From: Candidatus Poribacteria bacterium
GTDB taxonomy: Bacteria; Poribacteria; WGA-4E; PCPOR2b
Reading direction: 5' to 3'
Assembly: GCA_965218095.1 (NCBI GenBank)
Contig: OZ244587.1
Location: 5,792,001 to 5,856,000, forward strand
Length of the DNA stretch: 64,000 nt
Shown: one piece after another, positions 3,757 through 28,659 of the stretch
Layout of the letters: every line of letters starts with the position of its first letter
Position numbering within the stretch: position 1 is the stretch's first letter
Notes under the pieces: generated by a model
What the model saw: only the letters and a program-made list of their open reading frames with translations
Told to the model about the DNA's origin: nothing
Databases searched by the model: none
Program-made: the position numbers and the translations under genes

Positions 3757-4350
3757 CGGAAAATCGTGGTATGGTGGTACTCGCTGTCTCAAGCAGGTTT
3801 GCGCCGCTGCCAATAGTTGGTCAGAAGAGATTGAAGATTGACCTCACGAATGAATTCGGGCCTTGCTTTTCTGTCAATAATATGTCGTGCAGCGACGAAC
3901 TGCGTTGATAGAGTGTTCCACCCTTAACCCTTTCAAGGGTCATTAATGATCCTTTTCTTTGCTCAATGTAGGGCTTTGCAACCGTGGATCTGCGATACAT
4001 TGCTGACCAATACAGTTTCTCGTCAGAACGGCATTGGTCAAACCATTTCTGCAGACGGCAACCTAAGTTTCTAACTTGGCATCAAACACCGGACCAAGAT
4101 AGAATTTTGGGCCACGACTGGATCGGCGATTAATTTGTCAACACACCCTGGATAATCCGTTAATTCTGTGAATCCGTGCTATCAATCAAGTTTAGAGTCG
4201 CCACCGATGTGTCATCTACTTATCGGTAACCTGGTTCAAGTCGTTATGAGCCAAGAAGAATGGAAGGACGGAAGAACAATAGGAAATGAGTCTAGGCGTT
4301 CATGAGTTCATTTATGTTTTATGCATTACGCATCACGGAGGAGAATTTAT

Positions 4351-7062
4351 ATGTCAGACCGATACAATTTTCACGATGTTGGAAGACTTCCGGCACCGGC
4401 TGATAACGTGGCAATTGCCACACGAAGAATAGATGCCGGCGCGGAGATTAACTACAATGGTAATAGTTTCACCATATCTCATACGATCTTAGAGGGACAC
4501 CGATTCGCCCTCAAACTAATTCTAGCGGGCGAACCGCTGCTCTCATGGGGGTTGCCTTTCGGCGTCGCAATCGCTGACATCCGCCCCGGCGACTATGCCT
4601 GCAACCAGAAGATCCTTGATGCCCTTGCGATAAGGAATATTGATTTTGTGCTGCCATCGCGTCCAAACTTCAAGGATCAGATCGCCCCCTATATCCTTGA
4701 TGAAGACGTATTTCAGTCGGGTGAACAAGTTCCCCGATATGACCACGACAGAGCTTTTCTTGGTTATTACAGGGAAGGCGGCCGAGGCGTTGGGACGCGA
4801 AATTATATCGTGATTATGGGAACGACCTCTCGAACCTCCGGTTATGCAAAAGCGTTGGCCGATCGGTTTAAGGGCGTTGCAGCGGATTATGAAAACATTG
4901 ATGGTATCGTTGCTGTGACGCACACCGAAGGCGGGGAAAGCACAACACCTAATAATCTTGAAATGTTGCTGCGGACACTTGCCGGCTTTACGGTTCACTC
5001 CAATATCGGGGCGATATTGGCAGTCGATTACAGCGCTGAACCCGTGACAAATCAGTTGCTTCAGCGTTATATGGCTGAACATCACTATTCACTGGAGGCT
5101 GTGCCGCATCAATTTCTCAGCATACAAGGAGGTTTTGATGCCAGTTTGGACAAAGGTGAGACAATCATCAAAGGTTGGTTAAAACCGGTAAACGCCATAG
5201 AGCGCACCGAGGAATCTCTTTCCAACCTGAAGATCGCGCTTCAGTGCGGCGGCTCAGACGCATTTTCGGGGGTGTCGGGCAACCCGTTAGCGGCTTACGT
5301 TGCGAAACAAGTCATCCGTTACAGCGGCGCTACCAACCTCGCGGAAACTGATGAGCTTATTGGCGCCGAGCCATATCTGCTTCAGAACGTGAAAGATTTT
5401 GAAACCGCTCAACAGTTCTTAGGCACCATTGAGCAGTTTAAGGAGCGGGCGCGTTGGCACGGTCATACCGCTGAAGCCAATCCATCTGGCGGGAATAATT
5501 TTCGAGGGTTATACAATATCGTCATCAAATCAATTGGGGCTGCGATGAAACGTGATCCGGAGGTGTGTTTGGATTACGTCATTGATTACGGAGAGCGCAT
5601 GCTTAAGCCGGGTTACTACTTTATGGATAGCCCTGGAAATGACCTTGAGAGTATCGCAGGACAGGTCGCTTCCGGTTCAAACATGATCTTCTTTGTCACC
5701 GGCAATGGCTCGATTACCAACTTCCCCTTTGTGCCAACAATCAAGATTGTCACTACCACCGGGCGCTACAACCTGTTGAAAAACGATATGGATGTCAACG
5801 CCGGCGCCTACCAGGATGGTAGGCCAATGGAGGAATTAGGGCAGGAGATGCTCGATCTCACCGTTGATGTTGCCTCTGGCGAGCGATCCGTCGGGGAGAA
5901 GGCAGGACATTCGCAGGTGTCGATCTGGCGGAATTGGAAGCAGACGGCTCCCGTCGATCCAGCAACCATTCTTCCGATTAAAGCGCCTAACGGCGAACCA
6001 ATTCCGATTCGGATTGACGCCCCGCGGACGGATGTCGTCTTCAACGCAGTACAGACCGAAAGCGGTTATCGAAGTGATCAGATCGGGTTGATCCTCCCGA
6101 CCAGTTTATGCTCTGGACAAATCGCCCAGATGATTGCCGACCGGCTGAACCAACAAGGATTCGGATGCGAACAAGGGATTTCGCGCTATGTCGCGTTGGC
6201 GCACACGGAGGGATGCGGCGTATCGGGCGGAAATTCGGAGGATATCTATAGACGAACGCTTATCGGACATCTCATCCACCCAATGGTTGCGCTCGGCCTG
6301 CCCCTGGAGCACGGCTGCGAAAAGACTCACAACGACTACATGCGTCATGCGCTCACAGAACAGAGCATTCCGCTTGAACGATACGGGTGGGGGAGCGTGC
6401 AGTTAGACGGTGGCATTGACGCAGTCATCCAAAAGGTGGAGGATTGGTTCAGGAAGTCTCTGGAATCCATGCCTCGCCCGAATCACACTGATGTCGGTTT
6501 GGAACACCTTCGGGTTGGGGTCATGTCGAGCGGGAAAGTTACGGAAGCGGCGGCGCGGAGCCTGGCGCATCTCACTCAAACAATCGCTGGTGCAGGTGGG
6601 ACTATCGTCGTCCCTGCGAATGCGACCTTCTTGACTACTCCTGTCTATCTAGAAAATGTCCTCGGCGGTCAATCCTTGAGGAATACCCTCGCCTATGGTC
6701 AAAGTATCACCGACCCCGGATTTCACATCATGGAGACACCCACCGATCACGTCGTGGAAACATTAACAGGTTTGGGGGCGACAGGCGTCGATCTGATGTT
6801 CGCGCATGTTGTAGGGCATCCGCTTCAGGCGCACCGGATGATTCCGCTAATCCAAGCCACAACGGATGAGACCACGGGGGCAATCTATGTAGATGATCTC
6901 GATCTTTTGCCCGCGGACCCGGATTGGACGCCTGAAGGTTTTTCGGCGCAAATGCTGGAAGTCATCTTGCAGGTTGCCTCTCGTCGTTACACGCCCAGGC
7001 TCTATGGCAAGGGAAATACGGACTTCCAATTTACGCGGGGGTTGCTCGGCATCTCGATGTAA
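4351..7062 (+). CDS. UxaA/GarD-family sugar-acid dehydratase with N-terminal SAF domain and a duplicated C-terminal module
   Basis: DNVAIA (SAF), GVGTRNY, LQCGGSDAFSGVSGNP, ANPSGGN, MDSPGND, FVTGNGS. Second HTEGCG/GCEK copy downstream. RBS GGAGGAG precedes ATG 4351. Confidence 0.85.
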   Translation: MSDRYNFHDVGRLPAPADNVAIATRRIDAGAEINYNGNSFTISHTILEGHRFALKLILAGEPLLSWGLPFGVAIADIRPGDYACNQKILDALAIRNIDFVLPSRPNFKDQIAPYILDEDVFQSGEQVPRYDHDRAFLGYYREGGRGVGTRNYIVIMGTTSRTSGYAKALADRFKGVAADYENIDGIVAVTHTEGGESTTPNNLEMLLRTLAGFTVHSNIGAILAVDYSAEPVTNQLLQRYMAEHHYSLEAVPHQFLSIQGGFDASLDKGETIIKGWLKPVNAIERTEESLSNLKIALQCGGSDAFSGVSGNPLAAYVAKQVIRYSGATNLAETDELIGAEPYLLQNVKDFETAQQFLGTIEQFKERARWHGHTAEANPSGGNNFRGLYNIVIKSIGAAMKRDPEVCLDYVIDYGERMLKPGYYFMDSPGNDLESIAGQVASGSNMIFFVTGNGSITNFPFVPTIKIVTTTGRYNLLKNDMDVNAGAYQDGRPMEELGQEMLDLTVDVASGERSVGEKAGHSQVSIWRNWKQTAPVDPATILPIKAPNGEPIPIRIDAPRTDVVFNAVQTESGYRSDQIGLILPTSLCSGQIAQMIADRLNQQGFGCEQGISRYVALAHTEGCGVSGGNSEDIYRRTLIGHLIHPMVALGLPLEHGCEKTHNDYMRHALTEQSIPLERYGWGSVQLDGGIDAVIQKVEDWFRKSLESMPRPNHTDVGLEHLRVGVMSSGKVTEAAARSLAHLTQTIAGAGGTIVVPANATFLTTPVYLENVLGGQSLRNTLAYGQSITDPGFHIMETPTDHVVETLTGLGATGVDLMFAHVVGHPLQAHRMIPLIQATTDETTGAIYVDDLDLLPADPDWTPEGFSAQMLEVILQVASRRYTPRLYGKGNTDFQFTRGLLGISM

Positions 7063-8347: not shown

Positions 8348-8375
8348 TTGATTGTGAATGAAATCGTGCTATAAT
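8348..8375 (+). promoter_or_regulatory. Sigma70-type promoter for the ATPase/helicase cluster
   Basis: TTGATT-N16-TATAAT with extended -10 (TGcTATAAT), about 50 bp upstream of GAGGT RBS and ATG 8427. Confidence 0.6.
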
Positions 8376-8426
8376 TTCCATAATCCCTATCAGAAATTAA
8401 AGTGAAATGAAACACGAGGTGTCAAT

Positions 8427-9273
8427 ATGGATCTGACCCAGCTCATCGGGGAATGGAGGACGTCAAAAAAGCAGACAGAATCTGTTTTGAGGCTGCTTCG
8501 GGAAATCGCCCGTCTGGAGCAAAATCGGATGCAGCATCTGCCCCAATTGAGGAAACGATTGACTCAGCTTGATTCCTTTGTCAACCAACTCAACCGGACC
8601 CCACATCTGCAAGATGGACTGCGGAATTGGCTGAATGGGTATCGACAAGAACTTGCGGATGCAGCGGAGGAGTTCAAAAAACGGTTTGGGATTGTGCTTG
8701 AAGAGGAGTTGACAAAAAGAGGGCTTTCGCTTTCAGGATAATATCCTCAACTGAAAACGGGGCTGTGTACGATCGAACTCGACTTTGAGAGGGAACGAGT
8801 GACGGTTTGGTATGGTCCCAAACAGGAGCGTCTTTTTCAGTATGGTCTTGAGGCGGCGGAAGTAGCGAACAACGTTGAAAAAATCAGGGGGCGCCTTGGG
8901 TGCGGTTTAGCCACAGAAAAATTCCACCAGAAATTACAGGAGGCTTATGCCCGCGCTACAGGTGGGGTGGTGGGCAAACCTGCCCCAATCGTTGAGGTTC
9001 TAAGGGAACTTGCCTACCTCCTCCAGGATTCACAGTTTCTTCAAGATCCAAGGCAGGAGAACTATAAGGGCTACGATCGTGCGGATTTCAGCTATGACCT
9101 TTATCTGCTCCGTCAATCGGCTTCGGACATACTTGTTGACAAGCGGCCGCATCTGGTTGTGGCGACCTGAGCTCGCGCCAGAAGACAACGAGATTTCCTC
9201 TGGGTGCCTGATAATGAAAGCGGTAGGGGGACGACCTATTCCCACCTGAAATTTCGAGGAGGTAACGCAATGA
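8427..9273 (+). pseudogene. Uncharacterised ~280-aa protein, first gene of the candidate defence locus, with two in-frame stops
   Basis: ORFs 8427-8741, 8799-9170 and 9204 onward are co-frame, separated by TAA 8739 and TGA 9168. The original stop probably overlapped the next ATG (caATGA at 9270). Confidence 0.7.
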
Positions 9274-10527
9274 GTGAACTTCGCCTGGACGCTGCGCGAC
9301 GTATCATTGAGACCGTCGGCGCCAACGGTATCCCACCGGAACATGGATTTCAGTTTTTCACGGCTGGCCTGGAGCCTTACCTGACGGTCATTGATAAAGA
9401 GTATCTCTCCACGTTCATTCAGGGGGGAGGGGCCACCTTTAAGATCGTCATTGGCGTTTATGGCGGTGGAAAGCCCCACTTTCTTTACTCTGTTCGTGAC
9501 CTTGCCTGGAAGCATAACTTTGTCGTGTCGCATGTCTCCCTTTCTCCAGAGGAAAGCCCATTCCATCGGTTAGATCTGGTGTATAAAGTCATCGTGGGTG
9601 GATTTGACGCCCCCGCTAACTGCCGATGAACTGCTCTCCGGATACGAACAGGGAATGGCGAGTTTTCTGCGCACTTGGTACAGCCAGAAGTTTCAGGAAT
9701 TGAGCAGCACAGGTGTCTCAACGGAGGCGCTGCATGAGGAATTGTTGAACGGCGTGGAAACCATTGAGAGAATTGAAAGCATCAGCTTTGCCCGTGCAGT
9801 CAAAGCCGCCTTCCGTGCACTGACAGACCATCGGAAAGAGGATTTCATCAATATCTGCTTGTGGTTGAGTGGGCAGGGGTATGACCGGAGGATGCACGGG
9901 ACTTATGGCATCTACCAGCCGATTGATCGAACAACGGCATTGACCACGATCCGATCGCTAGTGCAGTGGATAAGACAAATTGACTACTCCGGTCTGGTGA
10001 TTCTTTTAGATGAGGCCGAGCGGGTGCCTTCCTTGAGCAGTCGGCAGCGGGTGCCTTCCTTGAGCAGTCGGCAGCGGGAACAACACCTGAGCAATCTACG
10101 GGAAGTGATTGATGCGTGTGGGCACACCAGCTTCGGCTGCGCGATGATTTTTTACGCCGTTCCTGACGAGAATTTCTTGGAGGGACGCACACAAGTCTAC
10201 GAAGCATTGCGACAACGGGTCGCTACCGTTTTTGAAACATTGAATCCATCGGATGTCCGAATCGATCTCAATCAAGTTAGCACCTCACCGCTCGACTTTT
10301 TACACGAAGTTGGGGACAAATTGGCTTTCGTTTACCAGACCGCTTATGACCATGAGTTTGAGGTAGCTGCCCTTGAGGAAACCATCACAATGACGGCGGA
10401 AACAGTGTATGAGCAACGCTTCGGTGACATTGGGTACAAACGGCTCTTCGTCCAGACGCTTATTCGAGGACTTCATTTTCTACGCCAGGAGGGTAGTTCA
10501 CCTCAAGTCAAGGATTTGCAGGTGTAG
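9270..10527 (+). pseudogene. DUF2791/BrxD-like P-loop ATPase 1, frameshifted
   Basis: Walker A GVYGGGK(P)HFL with T>P, ESPFHRLDLVY, Walker B LLDEAE, YEALRQR. Frameshift near 9600. 27-bp tandem duplication at 10021-10074. Confidence 0.75.
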
Positions 10528-10539
10528 GAGGAATCTGCC

Positions 10540-12002
10540 ATGCAAGAAAGCGTCATCCATCATAAAAAATACGGGTAAGGCGTCGTCAAAGGCACGTGCT
10601 TCAAAGGCTTCCAACTACAGGTGGCATTCGACACCGGACTGACGCGATGGGTGCGGCTGGATGAATTGACGGACACAACAGAAACGCCTCCGCCGAGTCC
10701 TCCGATGCCTGGCATCGGCGTTCCCCCAAACATTGAACGCTTCAAATCCCGACGTATGGTTGAAGCCTTTCGACTCGGCATTGTCCCCTACGATTGCGTC
10801 AGTGATTTCATTTTCGGACGCGCAGAAGAAATCCAGATTTTAACAGACTGGCTGGACCAACCCGACAGCAATGCAATGCTTACAGTGGGGGAGTATGGAA
10901 CAGGCAAAACGCATCTCCTTCACTATGCCTATGTCTGAGCGTTACAGGAAGGCTTCGCCGTTGTTTTAGTCGAGATGGATGGAAACGAATGCCCCTTTCA
11001 TAAACCCAAGCAGGTCTACAGCTACCTAGTCTGAACGCTTCAATTCCGTTCCGCAAAACATGGGAAGACACGGCTTGCCGGGTTTCGGGATGTACTCAAG
11101 GAGGCATTCGCTTGTTCCGCTTTCGAGGAGCATGTTTACTTCAAATGGCTAATCGATAAGACATTGGATGAGACGTTATGGGATTGGATCGAAGCGCGTG
11201 ATTACAGTCTCCGACCGCCGAATCTCTACCAGCAGACCAAAATGAGGGCCATCCGACGTGATTTTGACGCGGTTGAGCGGAATTTCCAACAGATGGAGGA
11301 GATCTTAAAGGAGATCCAACAGCTTGTTGATGGGGGTGATCTGAAGTTACCGGGAATTTACGCCAGATTGCCGGGATTGTATCCATATTATAAGGCAGCG
11401 AGTATCTACTGTTACCTTCTTTCCGCGCTCGGTTGGGCAGCGAAAGAGATTTTGGGACTCAAGGGGTTTCTGTTAATCTTCGACGAAGCGGAAACGGTCG
11501 ACAGATACGACAACCTTTATCAGGTGGACAAGAGCCAGAACTTCCTCAAGGCACTGATTCGCACAGCAAATAACGATGCGCATCTGTCCGGCCCACCCAG
11601 GGAGGCGGGACTGGACTACTGCCGCGTGGGTATTGCCCATCCATTCTGTTCCTCTATAAGCAGCTGTCCGGACTGAAGCTGCTTTTCGCTTTGACACCGA
11701 TTGACAGGCTCAAGGGGTTTCCAGAATTGCAACAGGCTGAACGAATTGATTTACAGCCGTTAACAGAATCGGTAAAACAAGCGCTCTTCCAGAATATCTT
11801 TCTCCTTTACAAGCGGTCGTATGACGGTCTCAAAGCAGATCTCCCTCTTGACATGATAGGAGCGGTTTTCCAACAAGTAACGCGCAGAAGTGAACTGACA
11901 CGGCTGTTCGTCAAAGGTTCTGTTGAAGTGTTAGACTTGATTCGGCGTGCACAGGGGCGCAGTCTGAGTTTCACCGAGGTACTGGGTGAGGTTTTTGAAT
12001 GA
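10540..12002 (+). pseudogene. DUF2791/BrxD-like P-loop ATPase 2 with an N-terminal Tudor/SH3-like segment, disrupted
   Basis: VEAFRLGIVP, FGRAEE, Walker A GEYGTGKTHLL, PFHKPKQVY, Walker B IFDEAE. In-frame stops at 10576, 10936 and 11032; frameshift near 11640. Confidence 0.75.
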
Positions 12003-13582
12003 TTGATGTCACAAAAGTTGAGGCGATTCATCGCCGATTGAAACGGGCCTGGATGCCGTTCTTCACTCGGTTCGGTCAGCTCACGCTGGTCCAGATCGAA
12101 ACGATTCCGAAGATTCTGGATGGCGCTAATGTCGTTGTGGCTTCACCGACAGCTTCAGGTAAGACAGAATCCGTCATCGCTCCCGTTTCGGAACACTTTC
12201 TTGCAGAATGTTGGGAGGGTATGGCGATTTTGTATGTCGTTCCAACTCGCGCCCTTGCCAACGATACGTTGGCGCGCATTGAAGGCCCGCTTGGGGACAT
12301 GGGACTGACAGCGGCGCTCAAGCACGGCGATAACCCTTCGCTGCCAGCAGATAGCCTGCCCAATTGTCTGATTACTACGCCCGAATCTTTAGACTCGCTG
12401 ATCTGTCGTTGCCCGCAAGCGTTTGCAACCTTGCAGACTGCCATCCTGGATGAGATTCATCTACTGGATAACACCTGCTGCGGCGACCACCTGCGGCTAC
12501 TCTTATGGCGGTTGCGCAAGTTGGTATCCGACCGATCTGACCGTCAGGAAGGTCACAGTTTCTCCACCGATCTCCTGTCGGCGACCCTTTCTGCGCCTCA
12601 CCAAATCGCCCGAAGGTATACAACCGACTTTGAGGTCGTGACGGTGGCCAGCAGCCGGGAAATCGATTATTACCTGATTGATTCTCACCAGGGAGCTTAT
12701 GATTTGGCGCGAGCGCGGGGGTGGCGGAAACTACTCATCTTTTGCAATCTGCGTGAGTCTGTTGAACAGGTTGCGGCTGATCTTGCCCCATTGTGGACCC
12801 CCTATCCTGTCATGGTTCATCATGGCAGCCTCAACCGTCGCGTGCGTGAAGAAGCTGAGACCGTCATGAAGGAAGCAGATATCGCGGTCTGTGTGGCAAC
12901 ATCCACGCTGGAAATCGGCATCGATATTGGTGATGTAGACCTCATTGTGCTCGCCGAAGCGCCCTGGAGTATCTCTGCGCTGCTTCAACACATTGGGCGG
13001 GGTAACCGCAGAGCGGGGCGCATTCATGCCGCGGCGGTAGCAACCACTGAGGAGGAGGAAGCGCTGCTTTCAGCGATGTTCAAGATGGCCGCGACAGGCA
13101 TGCTTCCAGCCGAGTCCTATGCGCCGGACCCTTCTGTTGCGGTTCAGCAGATCTGCTCGTATCTGTATCAACACCCCCAGGGGGCGTCAGAAGCAGAACT
13201 ACTTGAGCTCGTTTCTCCCCTGTGTTTAGCGAACGAATCCAGGCGGATTTGGGGGCACTTGCAACAACGCGGTTTTCTTGAGTGGTACACAGGACGTGGG
13301 TTCGCTTCTCCAAGGTTGATGGGTATGGGGGCAAAGGGGTACATTCCCGATGCACAAACCTGCAGTGTCATAGACGTTGATTCAGGCGGGGAAATCGGAA
13401 CCATCTCCGGCGTGTTTGATAACGTGTTTATTCTGGGCCAAAGAAGCTGGCAGATTGTCTCTCAGAAAGCGGGCATTATCAAGACCCGCCGCTTTCATGG
13501 GGAGGCAGAAACCCCTTTTTTTGAAAGACACAAGGGAATTGGCGCTTTCCACCATCTTTTGCCATCAAATTTGAAAAGGTAA
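11999..13582 (+). CDS. Short Lhr-like SF2 (DEXH) helicase, BrxHI/SngC-like, with degenerate motifs
   Basis: SPTASGKTE, PTRALAND, TTPESLD, DEIH, LSAT, HHGSL, ATSTLEIGIDIGDVD, motif VI QHIGRGNR (R>H). ATGA overlap with the upstream gene. Confidence 0.8.
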   Translation: MIDVTKVEAIHRRLKRAWMPFFTRFGQLTLVQIETIPKILDGANVVVASPTASGKTESVIAPVSEHFLAECWEGMAILYVVPTRALANDTLARIEGPLGDMGLTAALKHGDNPSLPADSLPNCLITTPESLDSLICRCPQAFATLQTAILDEIHLLDNTCCGDHLRLLLWRLRKLVSDRSDRQEGHSFSTDLLSATLSAPHQIARRYTTDFEVVTVASSREIDYYLIDSHQGAYDLARARGWRKLLIFCNLRESVEQVAADLAPLWTPYPVMVHHGSLNRRVREEAETVMKEADIAVCVATSTLEIGIDIGDVDLIVLAEAPWSISALLQHIGRGNRRAGRIHAAAVATTEEEEALLSAMFKMAATGMLPAESYAPDPSVAVQQICSYLYQHPQGASEAELLELVSPLCLANESRRIWGHLQQRGFLEWYTGRGFASPRLMGMGAKGYIPDAQTCSVIDVDSGGEIGTISGVFDNVFILGQRSWQIVSQKAGIIKTRRFHGEAETPFFERHKGIGAFHHLLPSNLKR

Positions 13583-17708: not shown

Positions 17709-19454
17709 ATGCGCAATGCACCGGATAAATCGTTAATACAGGTGATGCTCGATTCAAAGCTGATTTCCGAAGATGAGCATCGACAGGTTCTCGAAGAGGT
17801 AGAAAAAACAAGGGTTTTGATTGACCAGGCGCTCTCAAAGTTTGCAAACCCCAAAACCCTTGATCTTGCTAAGAAGAGCGTGGAGTATAGCGTTTCGTGC
17901 GTCCTGCTGGAGGATATCATTCCAGACAATGAAGCAACTGAGAGGGTCTCAGCGAGTTTTGCCTACCGAAACAAGGTGTTGCCGATTCGTTTCGATGGCT
18001 CAACGCTTACGGTTGCAATAGCGGATGCGCTGGATGTCATGCTAATCGACGAAATGCGGTTGGTCACGGAATGTGAAATCGATCCGGTGCTTGCGGACGA
18101 AGAAGATATTGAAGCGGCGATTATTCGCTCCTACGGGAAAACAGCCGCCGCCATCCTCAACGAAAGTATCAAGGGCCCTGTCGGGGCTGTCGCCACGCTT
18201 GAGCGCGAGACGATTGATGATTTCGGTATCAGTGAACAGGACTTGAGCCGAGATCCAACGGTTGTGAACGCCGTGGATCAGATCATTATCGACGCGGTGC
18301 GACTTGGCGCGAGCGACATCCATATCGAACCCTTTCCCAATGAGCTAAAAATCCGTTATCGGATTGATGGGGTGTTAGAGGAACAGCCACAACCACCTCC
18401 CCATCTCCAGTCAGCAATGACTTCTCGCGTTAAGATCATGGCGAACATGAATGTTGCTGAACGGCGTCGTCCTCAGGATGGTAAGATTGGCGTCACTGTT
18501 CAGAGTGCTGGGAATCGACAAATCGACCTGCGTGTTTCGACTGTCCCGACAGTACATGGTGAAACCCTCGTCCTCCGAATTCTTGATAGACAATCCATCT
18601 CATTCGGCTTAGAACAGCTTGGCTTGATGGCGGACAATCTGAATCAGTTTAATCGAATGATCCAGAAACCACATGGAATCATTTTAGCCACGGGTCCAAC
18701 GGGAAGCGGGAAAACCACAACGCTCTATGCGTGCCTGAAAGAGATTAACACGCCGGAGGTTAAAATCATCACAATCGAAGATCCGGTTGAGTATGAGCTC
18801 GAAGGCATTAACCAGATTCAAGTGAATCCAGATATCGATGTGACGTTTGCTGCGGGATTGAGGCATATCCTCCGACAAGATCCGGATAAAGTGCTGGTCG
18901 GTGAGGTTCGAGACTACGAGACCGCGGAAATGGCCATCCATACCTCTTTGACTGGCCACCTTGTTTTTAGTTCACTGCACACAAATGATGCACCGAGCGC
19001 AATTACCCGCTTGGTGGATATGGGGGTCGAACCGTACTTAGTTGCGTCAACGCTGGAAGGCATTATCACGCAGCGCCTTGGGCGCCGTGTTTGTCCGCAT
19101 TGCCACGAAATGTATCACCCAGAACCGGAGTGTATCCAAGACCTGCTTGGGGACAAAGCTGGAGAGGTCCCGCCCGATCTGCTTATCCCTCGTGCCGTTG
19201 GCTGCAAGGAGTGCCGAGATCGGGGATATAGAGGCCGGATTGGACTCTTTGAAGTCATCCTGATGAGCGAGGAATTGCGGGAAATGACCATTCAGAGCGC
19301 GTCTGCAAGCCAGCTAAAGCGGGTTGCGATGCGATTAGGGATGAAGACGCTGCGTGAGGATGGCTGGAGAAAGGTTGTCGCCGGCTACACCACCATTGAT
19401 GAAGTGGTGCGACTCACACAGGAGGACGAATTCGATATCGGTGAAGTGATATAA
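17709..19454 (+). CDS. gspE: Type II secretion/pilus assembly ATPase GspE
   Basis: ASDIHIEP, PQDG, GPTGSGKTTTLY, TIEDPVE, LRQDPD, TGHLVFSSLHTN, CxxC...CxxC. Confidence 0.92.
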   Translation: MRNAPDKSLIQVMLDSKLISEDEHRQVLEEVEKTRVLIDQALSKFANPKTLDLAKKSVEYSVSCVLLEDIIPDNEATERVSASFAYRNKVLPIRFDGSTLTVAIADALDVMLIDEMRLVTECEIDPVLADEEDIEAAIIRSYGKTAAAILNESIKGPVGAVATLERETIDDFGISEQDLSRDPTVVNAVDQIIIDAVRLGASDIHIEPFPNELKIRYRIDGVLEEQPQPPPHLQSAMTSRVKIMANMNVAERRRPQDGKIGVTVQSAGNRQIDLRVSTVPTVHGETLVLRILDRQSISFGLEQLGLMADNLNQFNRMIQKPHGIILATGPTGSGKTTTLYACLKEINTPEVKIITIEDPVEYELEGINQIQVNPDIDVTFAAGLRHILRQDPDKVLVGEVRDYETAEMAIHTSLTGHLVFSSLHTNDAPSAITRLVDMGVEPYLVASTLEGIITQRLGRRVCPHCHEMYHPEPECIQDLLGDKAGEVPPDLLIPRAVGCKECRDRGYRGRIGLFEVILMSEELREMTIQSASASQLKRVAMRLGMKTLREDGWRKVVAGYTTIDEVVRLTQEDEFDIGEVI

Positions 19455-19456
19455 CC

Positions 19457-19488
19457 TAGCAAAGGTTTGAACCCTTCGCTAGGCTTAC
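19457..19488. repeat. REP-like imperfect palindrome between gspE and gspF
   Basis: CCTAGCAAAGGTT-TG-AACCCTTCGCTAGG forms a hairpin. Confidence 0.45.
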
Positions 19489-19509
19489 GCCTTACGGTAG
19501 GAGTATTTG

Positions 19510-20733
19510 ATGCCAAGATTTCGTTACGAAGCGCTCACAAACACCGGGACAACGGTCAGCAACGCACAAGAAGCGAACACAAAGGCTGAACTTGTGTCTA
19601 AACTCAAGAGCATGGGGTATTGGCCCACGAGTATCGTTGAGGAGAGTACCGAAGCCCAAGCTCAAAAAAAGCTTCAACTTCCATTCCTTTGCACTCGAAT
19701 CAAGCCGACTGAAGTCGAGTTTTTCACGTATCAGATGGCAACACTAATCAGTGCCCACGTTTCTTTGTCCCGCGCTTTGGGAATTACCCTCGAACAGATC
19801 GCGAACGTTGAACTCAGACGGATCGTCGAACAGGTCAAGTCCGATGTTGAGCACGGTTCCACATTTAACGACGCACTCGCTCAACATCCGAAGGTGTTTT
19901 CAGACCTGTACGTCAATATGGTGAGAGCGGGTGAGGCAGGCGGCGTACTCGGTGTTGTATTGGATCGCCTTGCCGAGTTTGCTGAGAGACAGCGGCTTCT
20001 TAAAACCGAGGTGACCTCGGCGCTGTTTTATCCCGCGATTCTGCTGGGTTTAAGCGTCATCGCTGTGACAATTTTAATGACTTTTGTTATCCCCAAGCTC
20101 ACTGGTATGTTCGCTGAACTGGATGTTGAATTGCCTACTCCGACGCGATTTCTAATCAGTGTTACTGATTTTCTGAGTGCTTACTGGTGGGTGATTTTAA
20201 TTGGGGGCATCGGCGGTGTATTTGGAGCTAGGCAATATGTACGCACAGAGACTGGGCATTTTACCTATGATAGACTGAAAATTAAGTTCCCTGCCATCGG
20301 AGTAATCTTTAGTAACTTCGCACTAGTCCGTTTTACCCGAACAATGGGAACGTTACTCGAAAATGGCGTTGTTCTTCTGCCAGCGCTTCGCGTTGTCAAG
20401 GATACAATTGGTAACTTAGTCTACCGCAATGCTGTCGCAAATGCTGAACAAGAGATCGAGCGAGGGGCAACTTTATCGCGGGAGTTGGAAGGCAGCGGGG
20501 TCTTTCCACCCCTGCTGACCCAGATGCTCGCGATTGGTGAAGAATCCGGCAACCCTGAACAGATGTTGGCGAAATTGTCGGAGTATTACGATATGGAAAT
20601 CAAGAAAAACCTCGAACGGCTAACGAATTCGATTGGACCGTTGGTGATTCTATTTATGGGGTTGCTGATCGGGTTCATTGCGGTCGCGATGATACTGCCA
20701 ATTTTTGAAGCTAGTACAGCGTTAGGTAGATAG
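19510..20733 (+). CDS. gspF: T2SS inner-membrane platform protein GspF
   Basis: FRYEAL, HPKVFSDLYVNMVRAGEAGG, YP, RFTRTMGTLLENGV, IGEESG, LPIF. Confidence 0.92.
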   Translation: MPRFRYEALTNTGTTVSNAQEANTKAELVSKLKSMGYWPTSIVEESTEAQAQKKLQLPFLCTRIKPTEVEFFTYQMATLISAHVSLSRALGITLEQIANVELRRIVEQVKSDVEHGSTFNDALAQHPKVFSDLYVNMVRAGEAGGVLGVVLDRLAEFAERQRLLKTEVTSALFYPAILLGLSVIAVTILMTFVIPKLTGMFAELDVELPTPTRFLISVTDFLSAYWWVILIGGIGGVFGARQYVRTETGHFTYDRLKIKFPAIGVIFSNFALVRFTRTMGTLLENGVVLLPALRVVKDTIGNLVYRNAVANAEQEIERGATLSRELEGSGVFPPLLTQMLAIGEESGNPEQMLAKLSEYYDMEIKKNLERLTNSIGPLVILFMGLLIGFIAVAMILPIFEASTALGR

Positions 20734-20777
20734 TAAACACGGTCTAATACCATGACTTTACGACAGGAGGCTACAAA

Positions 20778-21224
20778 ATGGTGAAACGATTCAAAGCGGA
20801 TGAATCAGGGATGACACTCATCGAAATTACGATTGTCATCGTCATTCTCGGTTTGCTGGCGAGTTTTATTGCACCTAAAGTGGTGAATGCTATCGATAAA
20901 GCGAAGGTTGCAAAAGCCAAACAAGAAATTGGATCCTTGGAAAACGCGCTCCAGCTATACTCAATCTCCATCGGGGACTATCCGAGCACGGAGCAAGGTT
21001 TACAAGCACTTTGGAGACCTCCCAACCCGGAACCTGAAAATTGGGAGGGTGCTTATATTAACAAGCCAACCTTCAGAGATCCGTGGGGTAACGATTATGT
21101 CTACAGGTACCCCGGCAATCACGAGGGTTACGATTACGATCTCTACTCTTTTGGGAAAGATGGCAAAGAAGGCGGCGAAAACTTCAACACCGATCTCACA
21201 AGCTGGGTTGAGGAAACAGAGTAG
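20778..21224 (+). CDS. gspG: Major pseudopilin GspG
   Basis: G|MTLIEI class III signal, YPSTEQGLQAL, DPWGNDYVY, LYSFGKDGKEGG. Confidence 0.92.
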   Translation: MVKRFKADESGMTLIEITIVIVILGLLASFIAPKVVNAIDKAKVAKAKQEIGSLENALQLYSISIGDYPSTEQGLQALWRPPNPEPENWEGAYINKPTFRDPWGNDYVYRYPGNHEGYDYDLYSFGKDGKEGGENFNTDLTSWVEETE

Positions 21225-21334
21225 AGGCGAAGTGCTATCAGCCTAAACGCCTTTTACGATTCGTGAACACTTTATCCAGCCAGGGAATTCGTTAACTCAT
21301 GAACCCCGAAACCTACTGACATCAGCAACCCCCC

Positions 21335-21979
21335 ATGAAAGGTAAACATCTGTTTAGGCGAGCCCAGCACTCAGATAACGGCTTTACGCTGATTGAGGTC
21401 ATGATTGTACTGGCATTAATCGCAATCCTTTCCTCAATCACCATGCCGTCTTTGCGTGGCTTTGCTGCATCAACTCGCTTGAAGTCGTCTGCCCATGCTG
21501 TCCGGGACATGCTCAATTTTGCACGGGACATGTCAATTACAGAGCGGACTGCTTACTTCGTCGTATTTGACTTTGATCAAAACCACTATTGGCTTGCCTC
21601 CAGCGAAACTTTCAATGTCGAAAACCCGTCTGCCTCCTCAATTACCAGTCCATCAAGCAGTTCCCTCCAAGCTGCATCTCTGCAAACAACGCCTTTACGC
21701 ACGAGTACGATTCTCGGTGTGTGGCAAGAATTCAGCCAAAATGTGAGTTTAGTGCGCATGATAACAAATCACAATTTGCGGACCGCTCAAGTGGACGCCG
21801 GCGTCGATTATATCTACTTTTCCTCAACCGGTTCTTCCGAAGATACAACTCTGTATATTCAGGATAGGCGGGGTAAAGTGATGTCCATAGCGGTTGCAAA
21901 CGCTACGGGACGAGTCCACCTTCAAGAACTCGACAGCCAGCAAAGCGAGGAATTAGGATTATCTGTTGGAAGCTCGTGA
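21335..21979 (+). CDS. gspH: Minor pseudopilin, GspH/FimT-like
   Basis: G|FTLIEVMIVL; located after gspG. Confidence 0.75.
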   Translation: MKGKHLFRRAQHSDNGFTLIEVMIVLALIAILSSITMPSLRGFAASTRLKSSAHAVRDMLNFARDMSITERTAYFVVFDFDQNHYWLASSETFNVENPSASSITSPSSSSLQAASLQTTPLRTSTILGVWQEFSQNVSLVRMITNHNLRTAQVDAGVDYIYFSSTGSSEDTTLYIQDRRGKVMSIAVANATGRVHLQELDSQQSEELGLSVGSS

Positions 21980-22449
21980 AGACTTCATATATGAACCCCT
22001 TGAATGACTTTATCTCACTTATTCGTAGGTCAGTAGACAACAAACGCGGCTTCACCCTGATCGAAATCGTCGTTGCGTTAGCGATTTTGTCGTTAGCTCT
22101 GCCGGCGTTACTGCGTGCCTTTACGGAAGCGGCGAAAGGACAAGCAATTTCAGAAAACAGGACAACTGCCTTATATCTTCTCAAATTCCGGATGGCGGAA
22201 ATCGGGCTTGAGGGGTATCCAGATATCGGTGAAGAAAATGGTGAATTCGGGGATAACTCGCGATTTCGTTGGCATTCAGAGATTCAAGATATCGAGTCAG
22301 AGGAGATTGAAAGACTCCGCCTTGTGACCGTTACCGTCACATGGCAAGAGACTGGGAAAGAGCGATCTATTTCAATGAACACCTATATTGCCGACCGCCA
22401 AAAGCAGACACAAGACGGTCAGCAGAGTTCAGACGGTAACCGCGGATGA
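21976..22449 (+). CDS. gspI: Minor pseudopilin GspI
   Basis: G|FTLIEIVVALAI, FRW...VTVTVTW; operon position. Confidence 0.75.
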   Translation: MKTSYMNPLNDFISLIRRSVDNKRGFTLIEIVVALAILSLALPALLRAFTEAAKGQAISENRTTALYLLKFRMAEIGLEGYPDIGEENGEFGDNSRFRWHSEIQDIESEEIERLRLVTVTVTWQETGKERSISMNTYIADRQKQTQDGQQSSDGNRG

Positions 22450-23456
22450 GACGAAGCGGCAAGCGGACAAGAAGGAGGAAAGGAAGAAGGGGGAGGATGG
22501 AAGGAAGGGAAGGATTGACTTCACGCTTTACGTTTCACGTTTCACATCTTACGCATCACGCCCCCGGTTTTACCCTGCTCGAACTGCTAGTTGCTGTCAG
22601 TATTATGATCATCATTGGAGGCGCCGCTTATACAACGTTCAATATGGCAATTGATGTTTACCAGAAATCTGAATCGCGGATTGTGATGAACCAGAAATGC
22701 CGAATCGCGTTAGATCGCGTTGCTACGGATTTGAGTAACTTACAAACGGTGCAAGGAGATGAATCCCTCATCATCGTGTCTCAGGATAATCCGGGCGAAG
22801 ATGGGGGCGAGCGGGACGTAATTAGCTTTGTGACATTAATTCATACGGACCCAGATCCGTTTCTTGCCCAACTGAACCTAAGTGGGCAAACGATGTTGAC
22901 GGATGAGGAGGAAAATCAGGCAGGGTTTGTAAGCGATGTTCAACGGGTCGCCTACTATATCGGGGAAGATCCGAGTCAGCAAGTTGAGTTTAGCGAAATC
23001 CCCGGTATTCGATCGAGGGAGGCAGACTCAGAAGTACGTGGGCCGATTTTGACAGACTCTGGCGAAGAAGTTCAGCATCCGGCACTTTTACGCCTCGCAA
23101 CAATAGCCCTCGATCCGGAAATCGTTATCCAGCCCATGCTTGAGTCAGGAATTCCTCCGACCGAGGACGAAGATGGCAATCCAATCCACATCAATATTGC
23201 CCCGATTATCGATCAGATTGTCTCCTTCGATGTGAAATATTTTGATGGCGAAAAATGGTATGACTCATGGGAGGACACTGAGACAATTCCGAAATCTGTT
23301 CAGGTTTGGATCACTGTCGCTGATGAAAATGGACAGAGACGTCAGAATACTCCCTCCGCAAGGTTGACCCAATCGACGATGATTTATCTACTAATGAGTG
23401 CGAATTTTAGCGAACAACCTCCCGGTGGCGGTCCAGCAGGAGTGCCGGGCGGTTGA
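22446..23456 (+). CDS. gspJ: Minor pseudopilin GspJ (start possibly 22497)
   Basis: G|FTLLELLVA; C-terminal YFDGEKWYDSW...PKSVQV. Confidence 0.78.
   Translation: MRRSGKRTRRRKGRRGRMEGREGLTSRFTFHVSHLTHHAPGFTLLELLVAVSIMIIIGGAAYTTFNMAIDVYQKSESRIVMNQKCRIALDRVATDLSNLQTVQGDESLIIVSQDNPGEDGGERDVISFVTLIHTDPDPFLAQLNLSGQTMLTDEEENQAGFVSDVQRVAYYIGEDPSQQVEFSEIPGIRSREADSEVRGPILTDSGEEVQHPALLRLATIALDPEIVIQPMLESGIPPTEDEDGNPIHINIAPIIDQIVSFDVKYFDGEKWYDSWEDTETIPKSVQVWITVADENGQRRQNTPSARLTQSTMIYLLMSANFSEQPPGGGPAGVPGG
22470..22560 (+). repeat. Purine-tract plus heptamer (TTTCACG-like) repeat in the gspJ leader
   Basis: GGAAGG-rich tract followed by TTCACG CTTTACG TTTCACG TTTCACA TCTTACG CATCACG. Confidence 0.75.
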
Positions 23457-23565
23457 GGAAATGGGGAGAATAAAGCTCGAAGAATGGAAGGAGGGAAAAA
23501 TGGAAGGGTTCATTTCAGGTATTACGTTTCACGCAATACGCAATACGCAATACGCAATACGCAAC
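23456..23565 (+). repeat. Purine-tract plus (TACGCAA)4 repeat in the gspK leader
   Basis: GAAGAATGGAAGG...TTACGTTTCACGCAATACGCAATACGCAATACGCAATACGCAA. Confidence 0.8.
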
Positions 23566-24966
23566 AGTGAACACGGACTATCCTTGATTTCCACTCTGTG
23601 GATTTTGACAATTCTCTCAGTGCTTGCAACCCAGTTTCTTTATTCGATCCGTCTCGAACAACGGATGCAGGCAAACTTTGCAGAGCGAACAAAGTACCAC
23701 TATGCGGCAAAGGCTGGATTTGAGCAAGTGATCGCGATGTTGCGGGGAGATGAAACTCCCTACGATGCGCTCGGCGAAGATTGGGCAAAGGAGATGGAGG
23801 AAGAGATTGAAGACGGCATCATGGTTGGAAACGCCCTGACGTACCGTGTCAACATCACTGACGAAGGCTCGAAGGTCAACATCAACACCGCAAATGAGAA
23901 CGTGATTCGTGGGCTATTGAGTCTAGTCGGCTACGAAGAGGGGGCAGTACCTACGGAGCAACCACTGGCTGAAGCGATTGAGCAGGAACGTCCATATCGC
24001 AGTGTGCGAGACCTGGCGAGAGTTGAGGGCATGACCCAAGAACTTCTCTATGGAGGGCGGGCAGCAGGTGCCAACATAGAGGTAGACGAAACAGAAGAGC
24101 AGCAAAACGTCCCCGGATTGATTGATCTGGTAACTGTCTATTCGATCGACAAAAACACCAATGCAAATGGCCAGCAGCGTGTGAACATTAACAGTGCAGA
24201 TGCCCAGCAGCTCACGCAGATCCAAGGGAACAACAATCAACCTGTTTTCTCTCAGGGGGAGGCAGATTCACTGATTCAACAGCGTTCATTCAATAGCATC
24301 GGGAAACTGCTCGATGCGCAGGCTGTTACGGATAAGGTTTTTAACAACATCCGCGATAGGACGAGCATAGACAGTGACAAGGAGAATCAAGATCTGGTCA
24401 ATATCAATACTGCCGACGCTGACAGATTGCAGACGCTGGATGGGATTGATCAGGGAATCGCCGATCGGATTATCGATCACCGCAACAATCAAGGCAACTT
24501 CCAAAACGTTGATCAACTCAAAGACGTGAAGTTGATTACAGAGGACGAGTTCAGAAGTATCGTTGATCAGATCACCACAACGGACGACACAACAATTAGT
24601 GGACTCATTAATATCAACACCGCGTCCCAAGAAACTCTGCAACTGCTGCCGGGTATGGACGAAGACAAAGCGCAAGCGATCATCACCCGTCGTGAATCGG
24701 AACCAAAAGATGAACAGCAGGCTCAAGCATTGGAAGAAGCTGGAGTCGAAGGAAATCCTTTTACCAACATCGGACAACTCCTCGATGTGGAAAGAATCGA
24801 TATAGAAACGTTTCAACAAATCGCCGGGCTTGTCACCTATCGGTCGAGTGGTTTTCTCATTGAATCAACTGGGGTTGACCCTGTTGGGAAAACGCTTGCC
24901 TCCTGTGTTGGTGCAATCGATCGCACCGGGGAGCAAGTTGCGATTAAATACTGGAAACAGGATTAG
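23461..24966 (+). CDS. gspK: GspK-like tip pseudopilin with four HhH/ComEA-like modules (start 23461 or 23500)
   Basis: G|LSLISTLW (no E5, as in GspK), DEGSKVNINTA, four NIN[T/S]A repeats, C-terminal YWKQD. Confidence 0.8.
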   Translation: MGRIKLEEWKEGKMEGFISGITFHAIRNTQYAIRNSEHGLSLISTLWILTILSVLATQFLYSIRLEQRMQANFAERTKYHYAAKAGFEQVIAMLRGDETPYDALGEDWAKEMEEEIEDGIMVGNALTYRVNITDEGSKVNINTANENVIRGLLSLVGYEEGAVPTEQPLAEAIEQERPYRSVRDLARVEGMTQELLYGGRAAGANIEVDETEEQQNVPGLIDLVTVYSIDKNTNANGQQRVNINSADAQQLTQIQGNNNQPVFSQGEADSLIQQRSFNSIGKLLDAQAVTDKVFNNIRDRTSIDSDKENQDLVNINTADADRLQTLDGIDQGIADRIIDHRNNQGNFQNVDQLKDVKLITEDEFRSIVDQITTTDDTTISGLININTASQETLQLLPGMDEDKAQAIITRRESEPKDEQQAQALEEAGVEGNPFTNIGQLLDVERIDIETFQQIAGLVTYRSSGFLIESTGVDPVGKTLASCVGAIDRTGEQVAIKYWKQD

Positions 24967-25004
24967 TTTGAAACCACGATTGAAGATCGGGGCTAGAGAC
25001 TGTT

Positions 25005-26006
25005 ATGGCAAAAGCACCGCGCAACCGAACAATAACACTGTCGGATCGGGAGAGAGAAAACTATCGGCAGCATTTATTAAAAATCTCCAGTCCTGTTTCA
25101 GTGGATGGGGTACTGAACAAAGTTATTAACCAAGATCTCTTTGATGTCCTCGATTTTCTCCCATCACGTTTTGTTGATCTCCTCTTTCTCGATCCACCGT
25201 ATAATTTGACAAAGCATTTCAATACCCGTTCTTTTCAGCAGATGCCTGTTGAGGGGTACATGGAATGGCTCGAATCTTGGCTCTCCAAAATGATTAGGCT
25301 GCTGAAGCCGAGGGCGTCAATCTACATCTGTGGAGACTGGCGGTCTTCTGCTGCGATTCATCTCGTTTGCGAAAAATATCTAATCGTCAGAAACCGGATC
25401 ACCTTTGAAAGGGAGAAAGGACGCAGGGCGAAGAAGGATTGGAAAAACAACTCTGAAGATATCTGGTTCTGCACCGTTTCAAACGATTACTATTTTGACT
25501 CAGAAGCGGTACAACTAAAGCGGCAAGTCATCGCGCCATATTGGGAAGATGGGGAACCGAAGGATTGGAAAGCAGAGGTGGATGGGAACTTTCGGCTAAC
25601 GGGGCCATCAAATATCTGGACAGATATAACGATTCCTTTTTGGTCAATGCCGGAAAATACGCCCCATCCGACGCAAAAGCCCGAAAAACTGCTGGCAAAG
25701 CTCATGCTCGCAAGTTCCAGAGAAGGAGACCTCGTTTTTGATCCCTTTGCCGGGAGTGGAACAGCCGGAGTTGCAGCGAAAAAATTAAAGCGAAATTTCG
25801 CTATGGTGGAGATTGATGAGGAATATTGCCTTTATGCCGAGAAAAGGTTGCAAACGGCTGAGACCAACAGAACAATCCAAGGGTACACCGATGGGGTTTT
25901 CTGGGAAAGAAACACGTTGCGAGATATGAAGATAAAGCGGCGTAAGAAACCAAATACTGAAGGGACATTAGAATTATTTACAAACATTGGGCAGGGTCAA
26001 AAGTGA
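25005..26006 (+). CDS. Beta-class amino (N6-A/N4-C) DNA methyltransferase
   Basis: Catalytic DPPY precedes HPTQKPEKL and SAM-binding DPFAGSGT. Confidence 0.9.
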   Translation: MAKAPRNRTITLSDRERENYRQHLLKISSPVSVDGVLNKVINQDLFDVLDFLPSRFVDLLFLDPPYNLTKHFNTRSFQQMPVEGYMEWLESWLSKMIRLLKPRASIYICGDWRSSAAIHLVCEKYLIVRNRITFEREKGRRAKKDWKNNSEDIWFCTVSNDYYFDSEAVQLKRQVIAPYWEDGEPKDWKAEVDGNFRLTGPSNIWTDITIPFWSMPENTPHPTQKPEKLLAKLMLASSREGDLVFDPFAGSGTAGVAAKKLKRNFAMVEIDEEYCLYAEKRLQTAETNRTIQGYTDGVFWERNTLRDMKIKRRKKPNTEGTLELFTNIGQGQK

Positions 26007-26671
26007 AGAGTCGAATTTTTCACACGCGTGTGTATGAGGAGATTGAAGGCAAAATTAAGGCGTTTCTCAACGGCTACCCTGACTTCCTCACTCCAGACAC
26101 GGTTGCAAGCACGAGAGCGACAGGGGACGCAATTCAGCATATTCTGGAAGAGAACTTTGCGCAAATCATTGGAGATTTTTCCAAAGAATATTCCGCGAAT
26201 TTTGCGCGAAGGGCGATGGCTGATTTAGCTTTTACGGATCAAGACGACTTGTATTATGTTGTAGATGTAAAAACTCATCGATTGGAAACGAAATTTAACA
26301 TGCCGAATCTCACTTCTGTAGAAAGGTTAGCACGCTTTTATGAAGATGATCAGAATTACTTTGTGCTGTTGATGATAGCCTATACCATATCCGGCGTTCG
26401 CATTAATGTGGAGAAAGCTCATTTTGTGCCAATTGAATTTTTATCTTGGGACTGCCTAACAATCGGTGCGTTAGGTTGGGGACAAATACAAATTGCCAAC
26501 GCAAGCAATATTGTTATAAACCAAGGATATTCCAGAAAAAAATGGATGCTAGCGTTATGCGACGTGTTAAGCGAATTCTATCCTCGCGAAATCGAGAAAG
26601 TAAAGGACAGAATCAATTACTTTAAGCGGGTAAGAGAGCGATGGAAAGAAAAAGCGGATATTTGGGAATAA
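26003..26671 (+). CDS. Probable type II restriction endonuclease (PD-(D/E)xK)
   Basis: ADLAF...VVDVKT motif; GTGA overlap with the MTase; visibly more AT-rich than the flanking genes. Confidence 0.7.
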   Translation: MKSRIFHTRVYEEIEGKIKAFLNGYPDFLTPDTVASTRATGDAIQHILEENFAQIIGDFSKEYSANFARRAMADLAFTDQDDLYYVVDVKTHRLETKFNMPNLTSVERLARFYEDDQNYFVLLMIAYTISGVRINVEKAHFVPIEFLSWDCLTIGALGWGQIQIANASNIVINQGYSRKKWMLALCDVLSEFYPREIEKVKDRINYFKRVRERWKEKADIWE

Positions 26672-28648: not shown

Positions 28649-28659
28649 GAAAGCAGACC

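Follow-up and report, generated by a model that had tools for sequence, protein, structure and literature searches.

A decaying copy of a conserved four-gene cassette with two DUF2791-type ATPases and a short Lhr-type helicase in a Poribacteria genome

Our results demonstrate that a stretch of 64,000 nucleotides (nt) from the genome of a Candidatus Poribacteria bacterium (assembly GCA_965218095.1, contig OZ244587.1, positions 5,792,001 to 5,856,000; referred to below as the window) harbors an inactive copy of a real and conserved four-gene cassette, which is uncatalogued in the libraries that were searched. The cassette consists of a gene for a protein of ~280 amino acids (aa), designated gene 1 here, genes for two unequal AAA+ ATPases of the DUF2791 type (ATPase 1 and ATPase 2), and a gene for a short superfamily 2 (SF2) helicase of the Lhr type. 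It is likely a relative of the anti-virus modules Shango and BREX (bacteriophage exclusion), and a role in defense is likely. Our favored explanation is that the window holds a decaying copy of a patchily distributed cassette whose intact form is a mixed helicase loader, resembling the origin recognition complex (ORC) and Cdc6, that acts against phages; we put the probability of this reading at about 0.5.

Layout and decay of the locus

The four genes were located by six-frame reading. They are tightly packed and co-oriented on the + strand between positions 8427 and 13582, and the cassette sits between a gene for a PhyH dioxygenase and one for a LysR regulator. The GC content is 52% at the locus and 50% in the genome. 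An unknown first gene, two DUF2791-type ATPases and an Lhr-like helicase had been named in a preliminary description of this DNA, and this composition was confirmed by the six-frame reading and by PF10923 (DUF2791), which both ATPases match. The features are as follows.

8348..8375, + strand: match to a sigma-70-like promoter (TTGATT-16-TG-TATAAT), 51 nt 5' of gene 1, with an extended -10 element and 10/12 consensus positions; putative promoter.
8427..9273 (approximate end), + strand: gene 1 pseudogene, ~280 aa, with stops TAA at 8739 and TGA at 9168 and an extra base at ~9258.
9270..10527, + strand: ATPase 1 pseudogene, BrxD/SngB-like AAA+, ~409 aa, matching PF10923 and the BrxD/SngB models of PADLOC.
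10019..10072, + strand: 27-bp in-frame tandem duplication in ATPase 1, absent from locus L011 and from runs X2 and X4.
10540..12002, + strand: ATPase 2 pseudogene, AAA+ with a predicted ORC/Cdc6 fold, ~435-475 aa, matching PF10923, with stops at 10576, 10936 and 11032 and a frameshift at ~11634.
10540..10670, + strand: PcrA/UvrD-type Tudor domain at the N terminus of ATPase 2, assigned by sequence profiles and broken by the stop at 10576.
11999..13582, + strand: short SF2 helicase of the Lhr/BrxHI/SngC type, 527 aa, an open frame with substitutions at conserved motifs.

A single promoter had been proposed for these genes. The match at 8348 to 8375 stands, but promoter-type sites in the region (6, vs 4.3 +/- 2.5 in shuffles) are not above chance.

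In total, five stops and three frameshifts were found at the locus, in line with the five stops and two to three frameshifts noted previously, and the copy is inactive. In gene 1, the extra base at ~9258 lets the frame continue into ATPase 1; a fusion of gene 1 and ATPase 1 was considered and rejected, as this one base accounts for the read-through and the homologs have a stop. The lesions of ATPase 1, which retains LLDEAE, comprise a +1 frameshift at ~9605, a Walker A motif reading GVYGGGK and then P where homologs have T (GKP), and the 27-bp duplication. In ATPase 2, the frameshift at ~11634 is due to one missing base, and GEYGTGKT and IFDEAE are readable. The helicase departs from its family at 9 of 157 conserved columns, a number equalled or exceeded by 5 of the 34 other rows; its changes include motif VI (QRxGR to QHxGR) and a 4-residue deletion, at columns kept by 33-34 of those 34 rows.

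Contigs of four runs (X1, X2, X4 and X9) were compared with the locus. X2 and X4, which come from two other studies, each provide one contig over the whole stretch, with 10 and 27 differences, respectively, and both are identical to the window at all five stops and at the 9605 frameshift. Because these lesions are shared across independent studies, the decay is real and not an assembly error. The six lesions common to X2, X4 and the window are therefore old, and the remaining ones accumulated later: X4 has neither the frameshifts at 9258 and 11634 nor the Walker A change or the duplication, and X2 lacks the duplication only, the other window lesions being present. The 27-bp duplication is the most recent lesion seen. 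Each of the two also has a private stop (11230 in X2; 13450 in the helicase of X4), and the ratio of nonsynonymous to synonymous differences is 7:1 in X2 and 15:10 in X4. The X1 and X9 contigs span the stretch piecewise and have no differences listed; one of these two runs may be the source sample. Decay is ongoing, and strains of a single species show it at successive steps.

The closest intact named relative of the locus is L011, with 61-80% identity. A further strain variant, with a 19-base insertion at window position 11145 (ATPase 2), is present in one low-depth contig of run X11. RNA runs X10-X13 (one study of a sponge metagenome) yielded short pieces, 99% alike, that match gene 1 and further portions of the locus; being contigs, they cannot show transcription.

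Conservation and wider family

The cassette is intact elsewhere, in copies of 5 kb (for example, L009 and L010). Reconstruction of the window copy, which had been put forward, is unnecessary, as such intact orthologs exist. We examined 66 loci (20 from genomes and 46 from metagenomes), 20 of which were too short, and counted gene order in the 46 loci with at least 2900 nt after gene 1. As the preliminary description had anticipated, the order gene 1-ATPase 1-ATPase 2-helicase is conserved among intact homologs and was found in 45/46 loci, the exception being L013, which has no helicase. In the helicase's place, L013 carries a 577-aa open reading frame (ORF; 9981-11714) of no known family, possibly a frame that is open by chance because the DNA is GC-rich. 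Not every locus counts as independent, since grouping at 70% identity reduces the 60 intact gene-1 proteins to 35 clusters.

Named hosts include Poribacteria, Planctomycetota, Acidobacteriota, Chloroflexota, Cyanobacteriota, Atribacterota and Bacillota. The spread is patchy: gene 1 is present in 3/41 related genomes, and PF10923 in 3/121 genomes of the phylum. None of 28 pattern matches among viral contigs was confirmed. A plasmid search with ATPase 1 returned 689 records, all with <60% identity, and of the three inspected, two are Shango loci and one is a BREX-2 locus. The idea of a conserved fifth gene was dropped, as scattered Mrr_N and DUF499 proteins are the only neighbors whose clusters recur in more than one lineage.

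Absent from the preliminary description was a wider family in which gene 1 and the twin ATPases occur with other helicases. PF10923 was matched at E<=1e-15 in 18/401 genomes of the phylum of genome G129, and 14 of the 18 were inspected. Two adjacent ATPases behind a 260-355-aa first gene were present in 11 (two of which duplicate L013 and L022); of the other three, two cluster with Shango and one is in fragments. The first genes of these distant cassettes link to gene 1 directly in L106, L115 and L116 (35-107 bits) and weakly in the rest (8-14 bits), and are also linked by a chain of pairwise BLAST matches. Their helicases vary, with a ~700-aa Lhr type in five and SNF2 in L113; within the stretches examined, no helicase was seen adjoining L108, L114 or the second cassette of L111. 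In a tree of 56 ATPase rows, built with a quick method and no outgroup and so not ordering events, a branch with a support of 88, which is not strong, sets the 25 second ATPases apart, and the first ATPases group with SngB and BrxD, the 4 SngB rows forming their own branch (support 100). Two cassette subtypes stand in tandem in L111 (6381-15989) and L112 (5893-15000), with a Uma2-like gene between them (a PDC-S03 match in L112).

Predicted properties of the four proteins

Gene 1 has 92 homologs by word search and, with clustering at 50%, 831 cluster representatives at E<=0.001, of which 330 at 1e-30; at E<=1e-10 the family comprises at least 534 clusters and has no Pfam model. In the family, gene 1 usually overlaps ATPase 1 by 4 nt. 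Structure models were made of an intact gene-1 homolog, P0003, and, among the ATPases, of ATPase 2 alone. The P0003 model (predicted local distance difference test score [pLDDT] 91, predicted template modeling score 0.83) consists of a three-helix bundle followed by an alpha/beta domain with five strands and by a helical domain that closes with three strands; from the order of these elements, the C-terminal domain may be winged-helix-like. Conservation is highest at Y216, R218, D220, S222, D224, T246 and E134. Among these, E134, D220 and D224 are near-invariant acidic residues; the conserved motif is Y-x-R-x-D-F-S-Y-D, and no conserved His or Cys is present among the homologs compared.

No family match for gene 1 was obtained in Pfam, PADLOC or NCBIfam, the 5027 models of PADLOC 2.0.0 giving nothing beyond two weak single matches (E 0.002-0.004), and no nuclease or toxin family was matched. 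The PADLOC SngA model matched 0/7 close and 0/9 distant gene-1 proteins and does detect true SngA (E 8.5e-105 in L074, 3.8e-69 in L119), and hhalign of gene 1 against two SngA proteins gave 0.1-0.2%. At the sequence level, gene 1 is not TerB/SngA, in agreement with the preliminary description. Pfam searches with 86 members gave scattered coiled-coil families, with no TerB among the matches listed (25 of 76 families). A TerB_C search in 5 host genomes was blank, yet its controls were blank as well. Foldseek returned no match to the model at E<=0.001. Matches by VIA-align (Z<=9.9) are confined to the N-terminal bundle, with MIT domains at Z 8.4-8.8, not above background; fold-search matches are taken up by residues 1-85, a generic three-helix bundle, and scarcely cover residues 86-281. 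The ESM Atlas gave unnamed clusters only for P0003 and no usable named match for residues 95-281, and the gene-1 profile gave coiled-coil noise only against PDB sequences. The earlier proposal that gene 1 is the sensor or effector finds no catalytic motif or fold match to build on, and an adaptor or a DNA-binding protein would be at least as good a fit. Two longer homologs, P0312 (469 aa) and P0319 (366 aa), have low-complexity, lysine-rich N-terminal extensions with no Pfam match at 1e-9.

ATPase 1 has a mean identity of 66% in the family, with invariant Walker A, Walker B, YEALxQR and KRxF motifs. R307, within YEALxQR, is invariant (42/42) and by its position is the likely arginine finger. 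Two distant relatives have no Walker A match and retain YxALxxR. Against the NCBIfam BrxD model (NF033438, cut-off 350 bits), intact ATPase 1 proteins score 144.7-162.3 and ATPase 2 proteins 63.1-70.1.

ATPase 2 has a mean identity of 44%, keeps Walker B and R413, and has Walker A in 120/120 homologs. Between strands 4 and 5 it has no conserved arginine, the highest R/K column being 11/37. The best matches of its model (pLDDT 86) are Orc2, Cdc6 and TnsC: Orc2 and Cdc6/Orc1 align with Z 15.7 and a root mean square deviation (rmsd) of 3.7-3.9 over 233-241 residues (1w5s: Z 15.7, rmsd 3.7, 241 aligned), and TnsC with Z 15.0. ATPase 2 has Walker A and Walker B and, as modeled, an initiator-type ORC/Cdc6-like fold. 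A ~40-aa helical insert (window 11220-11380) is common to the window copy, L011 and P0182 and absent from most homologs.

ATPase 2 begins with a PcrA/UvrD-type Tudor domain (45 residues), not mentioned previously, which hidden Markov model searches found in 117/120 homologs, doubled in 6/120. Its profile matches UvrD C-terminal structures (7egt, 6yi2 and 7egs) at E 4.5e-4 to 1.6e-3; PF21196 is matched by 10/36 ATPase 2 members and, as a precomputed match, by several longer homologs. In the PcrA Tudor, which is reported to bind RNA polymerase and UvrB (PMC8318588), H681, W684, K712 and L714 are described as required for RNA polymerase binding (PMC5397179). The ATPase 2 columns matching these positions, mapped via an alignment to UvrD, hold H in 36/36, Y/F in 33/36, R/K in 30/36 and V/I in 36/36 members, with the key lysine of PcrA mostly replaced by arginine. 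One ATPase 2 protein, P0100, ends in an RNA polymerase alpha-CTD domain (E 2.9e-26), and that of L066 is fused in frame to the helicase (959 aa).

The helicase had been called short and Lhr-like. The Lhr/BrxHI type stands (PADLOC BrxHI, E 2e-65; SngC, E 1.5e-52; hhalign to SngC, 100% over 464 columns), but the window protein is not truncated, because the family length is 517-542 aa (43 proteins). The best NCBIfam matches, a ligase-associated DNA damage response helicase and PRK13767, are both far below cut-off.

Proposed function and relation to known systems

In the anti-phage loader that we favor, gene 1, co-translated with ATPase 1 by way of the 4-nt overlap, would be a DNA-binding or adaptor subunit, giving in trans the winged helix that BrxD-type ATPases lack. 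Each ATPase 1 subunit would supply the one that follows with an arginine finger, and ATPase 2, without a finger to donate, would cap the oligomer. This mixed ring or spiral would load the short Lhr-type helicase onto DNA, and the Tudor of ATPase 2 would dock a protein partner, either RNA polymerase, by analogy with PcrA/UvrD, or the cassette helicase. Once loaded, the helicase would unwind or strip the invading DNA and stall its transcription or replication; no cutting is proposed because no nuclease domain was found.

ORC is a heteromer of unequal subunits that loads a helicase. That ATPase 1 keeps the finger, and that ATPase 2 lacks it and carries a Tudor, favors a heteromeric loader of the ORC/Cdc6 kind. 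The complementary motif loss of the two ATPases, read from their sequences, fits the heteromeric ATPase suggested earlier and is the asymmetry expected of one with composite sites. Support for defense comes from the nearest characterized ATPase-helicase pairs, those of Shango and BREX-2 (BrxD-BrxHI), which are defense modules. It also comes from position: the L021 copy is embedded in a BREX-1 operon, with pglX on one side and pglZ-brxL on the other, and the L058/L063 copies (99.9% identical) are flanked by a DUF1156-like methylase and a DUF499 ATPase within a BREX-related operon. BREX-1 clusters are described as carrying inserted defense genes (PMC12707154), and we regard such in-operon positions as a stronger sign of a defense role than neighborhood enrichment. 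An RNase III-like gene is directly 3' of the helicase in both BREX-1-embedded copies (L021, 6074-6817; L052, 6490-7299). Mrr_N-domain proteins follow the cassette in L012 (5604-6167, coupled to the helicase gene) and L017 (8945-9973).

A number of observations weigh against an anti-phage loader. The enrichment of homologs in defense neighborhoods, a check that had been suggested, was not significant: restriction-modification (RM), BREX or BREX-related genes flank 8/24 lineage groups (L030, L012/L040, L017, L021/L052, L042, L058/L063, L061 and L066) vs 2/14 controls (one-sided Fisher p=0.18), or 9/24 if an orphan methylase is counted too (p=0.12). Mobile-element genes flank 4 further groups vs 2/14 controls. 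These counts are suggestive at best. They cover the 24 groups with at least 5 kb of flank, seven groups with less having been dropped, and 14 pre-chosen 12-kb control stretches (138/140 ORFs scanned); the Pfam scans of neighbors used 200 entries hand-picked from ~420 ORFs, with a few repeats and some core genes, at thresholds of 1e-7 to 1e-12. Many loci, the window included, lie among housekeeping genes; six Acidobacteriota genomes carry the cassette at one conserved site; and no effector domain was identified in the cassette. Genome G002, outside the gene-order count, carries gene 1 alone and intact. As to the mechanism, the arginine-finger label comes from position, not structure, and the winged-helix label of gene 1 from secondary-structure order only, and the distant ATPase 2 at L111:8566 likewise does not match the strict Walker A pattern. 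Binding of RNA polymerase is one option among others, because BrxHII and BR helicases also start with a Tudor, for which a reader role has been suggested. L013 is without both Tudor and helicase, a joint loss that fits docking of the helicase by the Tudor.

In G002, the intact gene 1 (L006, 8479-9348) has no ATPase or helicase remnant in 20 kb and follows a luciferase-like gene resembling the one that precedes the complete cassette in L005, a sign that the remaining three genes were deleted. As a whole, the window is not a defense island. It contains a type II secretion/type IV pilus-like cluster (17709-34150; T2SSE, T2SSF, T2SSG, PilM and secretin), inside which lies an orphan N6/N4 DNA methylase gene (25005-26006). 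At 23398-24966, a 522-aa T2SSK-like protein has several HHH_3 helix-hairpin-helix repeats (E 1.3e-38), which may point to DNA uptake. Other window genes include one for a 913-aa altronate/galactarate dehydratase-like protein with a duplicated domain set (4321-7062; GD_AH_C and GD_AH_second twice each) and an IS5-family transposase (59664-60470; DUF4096 and DDE_Tnp_1); no other mobile-element gene was seen in the scanned ORFs of the window.

Among the alternatives, there is a modest chance, and we judge it unlikely, that the cassette is a DNA-repair or transcription-conflict module, with the helicase loaded at stalled RNA polymerase or damaged DNA and no phage role. The Tudor type, whose PcrA version binds RNA polymerase and UvrB, the alpha-CTD fusion in P0100, the sub-cut-off DNA-damage match of the helicase, the housekeeping neighbors of many loci and the nonsignificant enrichment would all suit such a module, but it would not be expected to be patchy over distant phyla, to be lost or decayed in close kin, or to be inserted in BREX-1 and BREX-related operons, and its closest ATPase families belong to defense systems.

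We allow only a small chance that the cassette is an accessory dependent on a BREX, BREX-related or RM system, for example, clearing or presenting DNA for nucleases. BrxD-BrxHI in BREX type 2 is a precedent, the in-operon copies (L021/L052 and L058/L063) and the RM genes adjoining L012/L040, L017, L042, L066 and L030 are consistent with it, as is the absence of a nuclease of its own, and PglZ-domain matches occur somewhere in 4/5 host genomes tested. However, the partner system varies by locus and none is nearby in 16/24 groups, G131, a single-contig genome, carries the cassette without any PglZ match, and the PF08665 matches of the window's own genome are ~390 kb or more from the cassette.

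A stand-alone system directed at plasmids or other mobile DNA, or an abortive one with gene 1 as a toxic effector restrained by the ATPases, has a slim chance. The acidic residues E134, D220 and D224 and the Y-x-R-x-D-F-S-Y-D motif could be read this way, two of the oldest shared lesions are in gene 1, and plasmid, integrase or prophage genes flank several loci. Against a toxic effector, gene 1 has no conserved His/Cys and no nuclease or toxin family match, its intact presence alone in G002 is hard to reconcile with an unrestrained toxin, and the oldest lesions hit both ATPases too. Finally, single-contig assemblies, of which this genome is one, can carry indel errors, but the chance that the locus is intact and its breaks are sequencing or assembly errors is negligible and is refuted by the lesions shared with X2 and X4, each of which has its own stop.

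A bolder generalization of the anti-phage loader, speculative and in our judgment unlikely, is that gene 1 and the unequal ATPase pair are central to a large and so far unnamed family of heteromeric helicase loaders resembling ORC, with Shango and BrxD-BrxHI as single-ATPase offshoots, and that the Tudor subtype rides RNA polymerase, senses invader transcription and blocks it by means of the helicase, with neither nuclease nor methylase. The mechanism by which BrxD/SngB ATPases and their helicases defend against phages is not explained in the portions of the Shango and BREX type 2 accounts cited here. The cassette is a compact version without methylase, nuclease or recognized membrane part, in which catalytic motifs are split between two ATPases, one of which carries a domain that in other proteins binds RNA polymerase, and its intact 5-kb copies make it directly testable. 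If it gives no phage protection, it remains an uncharacterized, widely transferred DNA-transaction module.

The components of the cassette as a set match no single system in PADLOC 2.0.0, as foreseen, and no description of it was found in the literature around DUF2791, BrxD/BrxHI and Shango, supplementary locus lists aside. The modeled fold of ATPase 2 resembles those of ORC/Cdc6 and TnsC/MuB, which are DNA-binding AAA+ ATPases. Identity to them is 12-16%; the model stops at the AAA+ lid, whereas Orc1/Cdc6 continue into a C-terminal winged helix; and the cassette helicase is SF2 and not a ring helicase. The Tudor is like that at the C terminus of PcrA/UvrD in its sequence match and largely kept partner-binding positions, but it is N-terminal on an AAA+ ATPase, is sometimes doubled, and mostly has Arg for the key Lys.

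Shango, reported as a defense module, consists of SngA (a TerB-domain protein), SngB (an ATPase) and SngC (a helicase) (10.1101/2022.11.11.516204, 10.1101/2022.05.11.491447). The cassette shares with it a stand-alone operon, a specificity-type first gene, a DUF2791 ATPase with a downstream Lhr-like helicase, and the alignment of ATPase 1 to SngB (hhalign 98.9%). It differs in its ~280-aa first gene product, non-TerB at the sequence level, in having two ATPases, both outside the SngB clade, with a Tudor on ATPase 2, and in a helicase ~200 aa shorter (517-542 vs 725-731). For the BrxD-BrxHI dyad of BREX-2, a helicase-loading role has been proposed (PMC12839542). Like BREX type 2 (Pgl), the cassette has an ORC/Cdc6-clade ATPase directly before an Lhr-like helicase, an adjacency present in 45/46 loci, and its best PADLOC matches are BrxD and BrxHI. 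Unlike BREX type 2, it has no linked pglW, pglX, brxC/pglY or pglZ family among the 38 flanking ORFs scanned in the window, in agreement with the preliminary description; both of its ATPases are far below the NCBIfam BrxD cut-off; it has an extra gene 1 and a second ATPase; and its helicase matches only 436/698 positions of the BrxHI profile. With no SngA, no Pgl core, sub-cut-off and doubled ATPases and a shorter helicase, the cassette belongs to neither Shango nor BREX type 2, and it resembles both in its parts and layout.

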